Positions 1,751 through 2,982 of a DNA stretch of 64,000 bases are shown one piece after another (within the stretch, counting starts at the first letter, position 1; every line of letters starts with the position of its first letter). The translations under genes were made by a program, and so were the position numbers. The notes below the pieces were generated by a model. It had not been told where the DNA came from. It saw nothing but the letters and a program-made list of their open reading frames with translations, and did no database searches. Origin of the DNA: Syntrophorhabdaceae bacterium (lineage in GTDB: Bacteria; Desulfobacterota; Syntrophorhabdia; Syntrophorhabdales; Syntrophorhabdaceae); contig CAXXUO010000003.1 of the NCBI GenBank assembly GCA_963666485.2, positions 256,001 through 320,000 on the forward strand. The letters run 5' to 3'.

Positions 1751-1783
1751 AGCAACTGTGTTCGATGTCAACTGATTTCTTCT

Positions 1784-2719
1784 TCACGAGGTGACCTCGA
1801 TCCACGTTGTCTTGTTCTTCATCATGGTATTCAGAATGGTCAAAAGCTTCCTCATGCAGGCAGTAATCGCAACTTTCTTGGCCTTTCCCGCTTCGACGAG
1901 CCGTTTATAGAAGGCCCCGATGGCAGGATTGAACTTGATCGCGCTGATGGTCCCCATATACAGTATGGCCCTGACATGAGACCTGCCTCCCCATATGGTC
2001 CGTGTTCCCCGGTATCTGCCGCTGTCCCTGTTGAAGGGGGCGAGCCCGACAAGGGCCGCGATGGCCTTGCGGTTCAGTGTCCCCAGTTCGGGAAGGGCTG
2101 CGATGAGATTACAGGAGATAACGGGACCGACCCCGGGCATGCTCATGAGGATCGTCTCCTTCTCCTTCCACAGGGGGCTTTTCCTGATCGTCCGCGAGAT
2201 GTCCTTGTCGATCTTCTTCAAGGCCTCGGTGAGATAGTATATGTGGTTCCGGATATCCTCGCTTCCGGCAGCGGGCGCTTTCTCGAGGCGGTTCTTCTCC
2301 ATCGTCAGCATCTGGATGAGCTGCCTCCTGCGGGCAACGAGGGCACGGAGCACCTCGGCATCTTTCTCCGGAAGCGGCCGTATCTCCGGCTCGATGGCCT
2401 TTGCGAACTGCGCGAGGACACCTGCATCTATCGTGTCCGTCTTTGCGAGCCTGCCTGTCGCCTTCGCGAAGTCCCTCACCTGCCGGGGATTGACCGCTAC
2501 AACAGGAAGCTTGCCGTCCGCCAGGGTACGCACTGCTCCCATCTCGTATCCTCCCGACGCCTCGATGACGATGCGGGAAGGGTTGAGAGGAAGTACGAAG
2601 GCAAGGATCGCCTCGTGGCCCTCCTCGTCGTTTGTAAACCTCTTCTGCGTGCCGCCCGGTATGACCGCGAGGTCACAATGCTCTTTCGATATGTCGATCC
2701 CGATGAAGACGTCGTCCAT
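1784..2719 (-). CDS. IS110 family transposase/recombinase (311 aa)
   Basis: GIDISK, IEASGGY, KTDTIDA (DEDD) and [10 protein letters not shown] (catalytic Ser) motifs; start moved to ATG at 2719 after an AGGGG RBS. Confidence 0.96.
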
Positions 2720-2734
2720 GATATCACCCCTTTT

Positions 2735-2915
2735 TCCCGTGTCCCTTCCTTGTGCAATGCGGGATCTCCTGCGAGTCCCCTGCAACTGTCCGGGTTTATA
2801 AGGAGAAGGTGTGGCGGCCCGAGCTTGGATACGGGATATCATCCCCTGGTTTTTACGGCCTGCCACACCGGCAACCTTTTTCTCTTTTCTATCATGGATT
2901 GTTCGTGATATTCCA
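2735..2915 (-). ncRNA. Putative IS110 bridge RNA with target- and donor-binding loops
   Basis: Stem GGTGTGGCAGGCC/GGCCGCCACACC encloses guides AAAACC and ATCCAAG matching the flanks; a second loop carries ACAGTTGC and ACAAG matching the element ends; boundaries approximate. Confidence 0.75.
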
Positions 2916-2982
2916 CGGGGAGTATCATACAAGGTTTTGGTTTTATTGTTGTTTCCGGCCCCTTTATTTTTATATAGCAGGC

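Follow-up and report, generated by a model that had tools for sequence, protein, structure and literature searches.

An intact IS621-type IS110 element with a predicted bridge RNA, inserted at the tails of CGTC-type REPs in a Syntrophorhabdaceae genome

The closest described systems are IS621 (PMC11208160, PMC11208158, PMC13626964; PDB 8wt6) and ISCro4 (PDB 9t56), which, according to the portions of these sources available to us, combine a recombinase carrying DEDD and Ser catalytic residues with a long left end, two guide loops, a CT core, a promoter formed at the junction of the joined ends, and a REP target. IS110 elements that target REPs are already known, and the accessible part of PMC1525189 describes ISPpu10, ISPpu9, ISPa11 and ISRm19 as elements whose copies all occupy a single position in a REP family. 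We analysed a stretch of 64,000 nucleotides (the window) from the genome of a Syntrophorhabdaceae bacterium (G000), in which an element with the same arrangement is present. It belongs to the already described RNA-guided IS110 family, and a sister element has already been published. It differs from IS621 and ISCro4 in its 33-nt right end, in its target, and in a 3-nt bulge in the right donor guide, and from the four REP-targeting elements in that its REP is kept whole on the right-target side and is of the CGTC type, the latter a difference that may not extend to ISRm19. The coordinates of its features are collected in Table 1.

Table 1. Positions of the element, its predicted functional parts and its target within the window
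Feature	Position	Strand	Remarks
IS110 element, 1183 bp including both CT cores	1751..2933	-	4 full copies without differences and with common ends in host genome G000
Left CT core	2932..2933	-	starting point of 5/5 copies
Left end, predicted bridge-RNA gene, 214 nt	2720..2933	-	two-loop fold; pairing kept across aligned left ends
-10 box	2924..2929	-	17 bp from the -35 box when ends are joined; putative, from consensus
Target-binding loop (predicted)	2808..2871	-	target guides 2847-2855 (left) and 2824-2830 (right), in agreement with the flanks and covarying over 9 left-end types
Donor-binding loop (predicted)	2743..2794	-	donor guides 2782-2789 (left) and 2749-2758 (right, containing a 3-nt bulge)
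Shine-Dalgarno-like site (putative)	2725..2731	-	5 nt upstream of ATG at 2719
Bridge recombinase, DEDD/Ser, 311 aa	1784..2719	-	NF033542, PF01548, PF02371; D9, E53, D95, D98, S233
Candidate start of circle-only frame	1785..1798	-	GAGG 1795-1798 and GTG 1787-1785 overlapping the recombinase stop
Right end, 33 nt	1751..1783	-	-35 box 1766-1771, left-donor half 1753-1759, right CT core 1751-1752
CGTC-type REP	1721..1750	+	CGTC tag, 9-bp stem, 5-nt loop, CCA tail; right target half 1746-1750
Array of 2.8 REP-containing 40-bp units	1642..1751		
Left target half	2934..2940	-	final 5 bases common to 5/5 copies

Read on the minus strand, the element consists of CT, a 214-nt left end, the recombinase ORF (2719-1784), a 33-nt right end and CT. 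An initial annotation had proposed an intact IS110 element at 1751..2933 with exact ends at a CT core and no terminal inverted repeats, and had suggested comparing the boundaries of further genomic copies; each of these points is borne out, with CT at 2933-2932 and 1752-1751 delimiting 1183 bp on the minus strand. BLASTN of the element against the host genome returned five matches, representing four full copies, on contigs C2, C3 (which contains the window), C5 and C8, and one 5' fragment. The full copies show no differences over 1183 bp, and the same CT is used by all five left ends and all four right ends, with flanks that differ between copies. A left end at the alternative CT at 2976-2977 is used by none of the five copies and was rejected. 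Relatives with 69-87% identity have the same start and end motifs as the element, and all 13 clade elements have a right end of 33 nt. The terminal 40 nt have in common, in inverted orientation, just an internal 6-mer. The long left end (214 nt), short right end (33 nt) and common CT core are those of the IS110 group (IS621-like); assignment to the IS1111 group, whose hallmarks are sub-terminal inverted repeats and a long right end (in part after PMC11187229), was rejected, as the element has neither. On its sequence, the element is very probably an intact, autonomous and recently active IS110 of the IS621 type that moves by bridge recombination, and its copies suggest recent multiplication within the CGTC REPs of the host genome, although the identity of the four copies could instead reflect flattening by the assembler. 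The initial annotation was correct as to the element type and its ends; it overlooked the CGTC REP-tail target, the junction promoter and the multi-copy state.

The fragment on contig C4 (G000:C4:148775-149178) is a 401-bp 5' part of the element. Its left end is whole, with a 3-nt insertion in the donor-loop hairpin and one substitution, and it is cut after 68 codons, where it adjoins a different GGGGACGTCC-containing repeat. Such a fragment could supply bridge RNA in trans. No relatives of the element were found among 197 pattern matches in viral contigs, and a literature search pairing 'Syntrophorhabdus' with 'IS110' found nothing in its coverage, which excludes most subscription papers; the element or a closer relative could already stand in ISfinder, in the IS622 orthologue screen or in the supplements of bioRxiv preprints.

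The recombinase ORF (2719-1784) is stop-free over 311 aa and reaches 239.5 bits against NF033542, for which the cut-off is 140 bits, in agreement with the uninterrupted 311-aa DEDD/Ser recombinase annotated initially. An N-terminal DEDD RuvC domain (PF01548) is followed by a C-terminal PF02371 domain with the catalytic Ser, and residues 5-302 align with ISCro4 and IS621. The protein is shorter than that of IS621 (326 aa) and distant in sequence (E 1.8e-35 to 8wt6). The catalytic residues given for IS621 in the accessible part of PMC11208158 (D11, E60, D102, D105 and S241) map to D9, E53, D95, D98 and S233, and these are invariant in nine of nine aligned proteins. An antisense ORF of 310 codons (1976-2908) was dismissed as a shadow frame, with two to six stops in the same frame of eight of eight relatives.

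The left end, which the initial annotation took to be RNA-coding, is predicted to encode a bridge RNA with four guides fitting donor and target, and the conserved two-loop fold and the matching guides uphold that annotation. The predicted fold has two stems carrying large internal loops. Computed for the left end of the window element by itself, its z-score is only -1.66; over ten aligned left ends 98.9% of 270 cells are paired and three of the 27 pairs are changed on both sides, figures that apply to a fold derived from these same related left ends. Rfam gave three weak matches, all below the gathering score. In the IS621 register, the left donor guide equals the donor half at the right end plus C, and the right donor guide is complementary to seven of seven bases starting at the core and continuing into the left end, bridging the 3-nt bulge. 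The right target guide is complementary to the core and five target bases in four of four copies, and the left target guide matches five bases and the core C in five of five. The initial annotation had described the donor as close to that of IS621; the IS621 donor on which this was based is correct (PMC11208160 supplement), and the two donors differ at two of 14 positions and are identical at 12. The element's donor 14-mer occurs at least 188 times in file 4 of that supplement and 424 times in file 5, which has the donor list, and because of these 424 occurrences we regard it as a common IS110 donor. By our reading of the handshake bases, the window element has two Watson-Crick pairs before and two after exchange, as compared with one and three for IS621, and its core-adjacent handshake bases appear to favour the exchanged state.

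When the ends are joined, a predicted sigma-70 promoter is formed that matches the consensus at 6/6 positions of the -35 box and 5/6 of the -10 box, with a 17-bp spacer. This promoter is missing from a scan of the linear window, and arises only upon joining of the ends.

The target is a CGTC-type REP, defined in the accessible part of PMC3733652 by a CGTC tag, an 8-9 bp stem beginning AT, a 4-5 nt loop and a CCA tail; window positions 1721-1750 agree with this definition, and the CCA tail of the hairpin is the insertion point of four of four full copies. With a sequence pattern of our own we found 198 CGTC REPs in G000. Among 67 empty REPs with an A-rich leader and core, the match to the right guide is exact in 27, wobble in 38 and poorer in two, and all four occupied sites fall in the exact class (hypergeometric 0.032 versus the empty leader-bearing REPs). 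The guide-matched 12-mer has 27 empty occurrences in the genome, all in REPs, as compared with 0.3 expected by composition. An inverted partner lies within 200 bp of 40 of the 67 leader-bearing REPs, as in REP doublets. A REP tyrosine transposase (RAYT) was considered as the mover of these REPs and rejected, as PF01797 has no match in G000, which is 99% complete (the control was positive in 6 of 14 genomes). Window positions 1571-1626 hold eight perfect copies of a 7-bp unit, doublets of which number 173 in G000, and arrays like this one are targets of the element's relatives.

A metagenome scan yielded 89 relatives, of which 80 were retained, and three of the 19 other same-genus genomes have a match. 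Guide and flank were compared over nine left-end types, taking the first locus of each and leaving out L010 (frameshifted, with an abnormal right end) and the partial L023, L068 and L116. Right guides match their flanks at 44 of 45 bases and left guides at 42 of 54, and permuting guides among types gives p values of 0.0004 (right) and 0.0009 (left), which are overstated because the left-end types are kin. Guides and targets change together in relatives at 69-87% identity. L058 has one right-guide base changed and sits at a REP variant that fits the change. Types L061, L063 and L065 have another common right guide, with 14 of 14 listed right flanks matching at five of five bases, and several of their loci are in 7-bp repeat arrays. 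In L069 both guides are replaced and both flanks match. The left-guide match is looser, positions 1-2 being mismatched in most copies; the target of L059 is mismatched on both sides, and the left flanks of L064 and L027 are displaced by one base. Flanks of L027, L061, L064 and L067 are mixed between assemblies, and some of these may therefore be misjoined. The frameshifted L010 has a right end without CT and a right flank that does not fit the guide. L116 and L068 are halves of an L060-type element, each adjoining other sequence that appears by eye to be transposase-related, and this element has possibly been interrupted by a second IS.

The published sister, at 85% aa identity, is contained in the Durrant 2024 supplement and corresponds to the element in L060, whose left end, donor and target are given there. 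It shares its ends, donor, RNA scaffold and right guide with the window element and likewise targets the REP tail; its left guide differs by one base, as does its target. Element ends in PMC11208160 were derived, according to the accessible part of that paper, from empty sites or by iterative BLAST, and because the latter also defined ends, those of L060 in its supplement agree with ours but do not prove that an empty site exists. The right-end 18-mer of the window element itself has no match in the part of this supplement that was searched. The biology is thus ordinary, an IS110 in REPs; the practical value lies in a compact 311-aa bridge recombinase for which ends, donor, target and guides are all well fixed. 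The element also connects an IS with CGTC REPs; the accessible part of the 2013 survey noted only fortuitous transposase associations for these REPs. The clade, with members at 69-87% identity in two REP variants, 7-bp repeat arrays and an unrelated site, is a small natural reprogramming series that can test the importance of a target hairpin beyond ISPpu10.

That hairpin could have a more direct role, with the same element additionally requiring the REP stem-loop as a structural gate on the right-target side. A hairpin lies directly behind the right target half in four of four full copies and also in L057, L058, L059, L060 and L068, and a gate of this kind is reported in the ISPpu10 preprint (10.64898/2026.03.19.712850). 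However, in the accessible part of that preprint the required stem-loop is on the left-target side and its stem includes the left target, whereas the hairpin at the window element is on the right and its stem takes just the final two right-target bases. Moreover, relatives at 80-85% identity are inserted in 7-bp repeat arrays or plain sequence without such a hairpin. The association itself needs no gate, because all 27 empty guide-matched 12-mers in G000 lie in REPs. With the hairpin on the right and close relatives managing without one, a gate is unnecessary to explain the data, and we consider it unlikely. The element could also be intact in sequence yet immobile now, either because a burst has finished or because it is silent in this host. 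One copy is already shortened to 401 bp, 27 exact targets are still empty, and neither a circle junction nor an empty allele was seen in runs X1, X5 and X7, of which X1 may come from the source sample itself; all three are contigs, which drop rare forms, so that the power of this comparison is near nil. Against immobility are the zero differences among four copies of 1183 bp and the apparent integrity in the element of every known requirement for mobility; IS621 excision is itself rare, according to the accessible part of PMC13626964. We regard present immobility as rather unlikely, and favour a recently active element.

The ORF track has 382 aa, 71 codons more than the 311-aa recombinase, and the initial annotation considered these extra codons to be probably spurious. 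The left end might instead be translated as well, yielding a longer recombinase; its start would be either the TTG at the core or, once the circle has formed, a codon that overlaps the recombinase stop. In 12 of the 13 clade elements the frame is open from this latter start via the right end, the junction and the left end, and GAGG lies 6 nt upstream of the start in 13 of 13. New stops in the three frames number 0, 3 and 6 for 13, 13 and 15 chances, and the window type has a 3-nt indel, as do the C4 fragment and L060. On the other hand, the probability of the frame staying open is 0.084 with the observed mutation spectrum and 0.02 with random bases, values obtained post hoc with seven related types picked for colinearity, a set that left out L060, L010 and the window type (which is 3 nt shorter). 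The frame is broken in L060 and L116, and in a wider set (284 loci, 241 with a match, 132 intact with both ends by regular expression, 92 distinct, 28 clusters) six clusters have an open left end in this frame, as compared with two and six for the other frames, and four have a through-circle frame. Variable columns by codon position number 29/28/32 in the extension, with no third-position bias, and 105/63/221 in the CDS; the TTG is located upstream of the -10 box, and a ribosome-binding site precedes the ATG at 2719. The extension is thus probably not a protein, as the annotation had it; its lack of codon bias and the position of the TTG favour that claim and the frame open in 12 of 13 clade elements goes against it, leaving it likely but unproven. 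Translation of the left end is highly doubtful, and it is equally improbable that circularisation builds a reading frame running through the right end, the CT junction, the bridge-RNA gene and the recombinase to give 394 aa rather than 311. If it did, ribosomes that re-initiate on round-the-circle transcripts would read through the guide RNA region and produce an extended recombinase, a switch specific to the circle. A literature search for a junction-spanning frame found nothing in its coverage, which excludes most subscription papers.

A plausible mechanism follows the steps known from IS621, as given in the accessible parts of PMC11208160, PMC11208158 and PMC13626964; the activity, bridge RNA and circle of the element are inferred by analogy. 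The end of the gene for Ribonuclease R (rnr; TIGR02063, 732 bits), which occupies window positions 2983-5088 on the minus strand, lies 49 bp upstream of the element on the same strand, and a window scan found no terminator-like site between them on that strand. Read-through transcription supports IS621 excision (PMC13626964, accessible part), and read-through from rnr would give low levels of recombinase and bridge RNA. The recombinase-RNA complex would excise the element at its CT cores as a 1181-bp circle, on which the junction promoter would raise expression. The bridge RNA would then pair the circle with its target, and the recombinase would insert it at the CT that adjoins the CCA tail of a CGTC-type REP, so that the hairpin remains whole. 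The guide loop would set the target choice, and relatives with changed guides would for this reason occupy other repeats.

An empty site in related strains, suggested initially as a check, did not emerge in its exact form among 17 same-genus rnr loci, because the REP is absent there along with the element; the recombinase is missing from all 17. The window's 506-aa neighbour directly follows rnr in three of them. This 506-aa ORF (45-1565, plus strand) has a signal-peptide-like start and no match in Pfam or NCBIfam, and homologues 58-71% identical to it are convergent to rnr in L040, L041 and L042. In run X7, pieces match the window at 2792-2958 and 2983-3600; the left end of a relative extends 25 bp into window-like flank, and the contig with the rnr orthologue stops near the relative's left end. 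These pieces may come from a related organism with an insertion at this very site.
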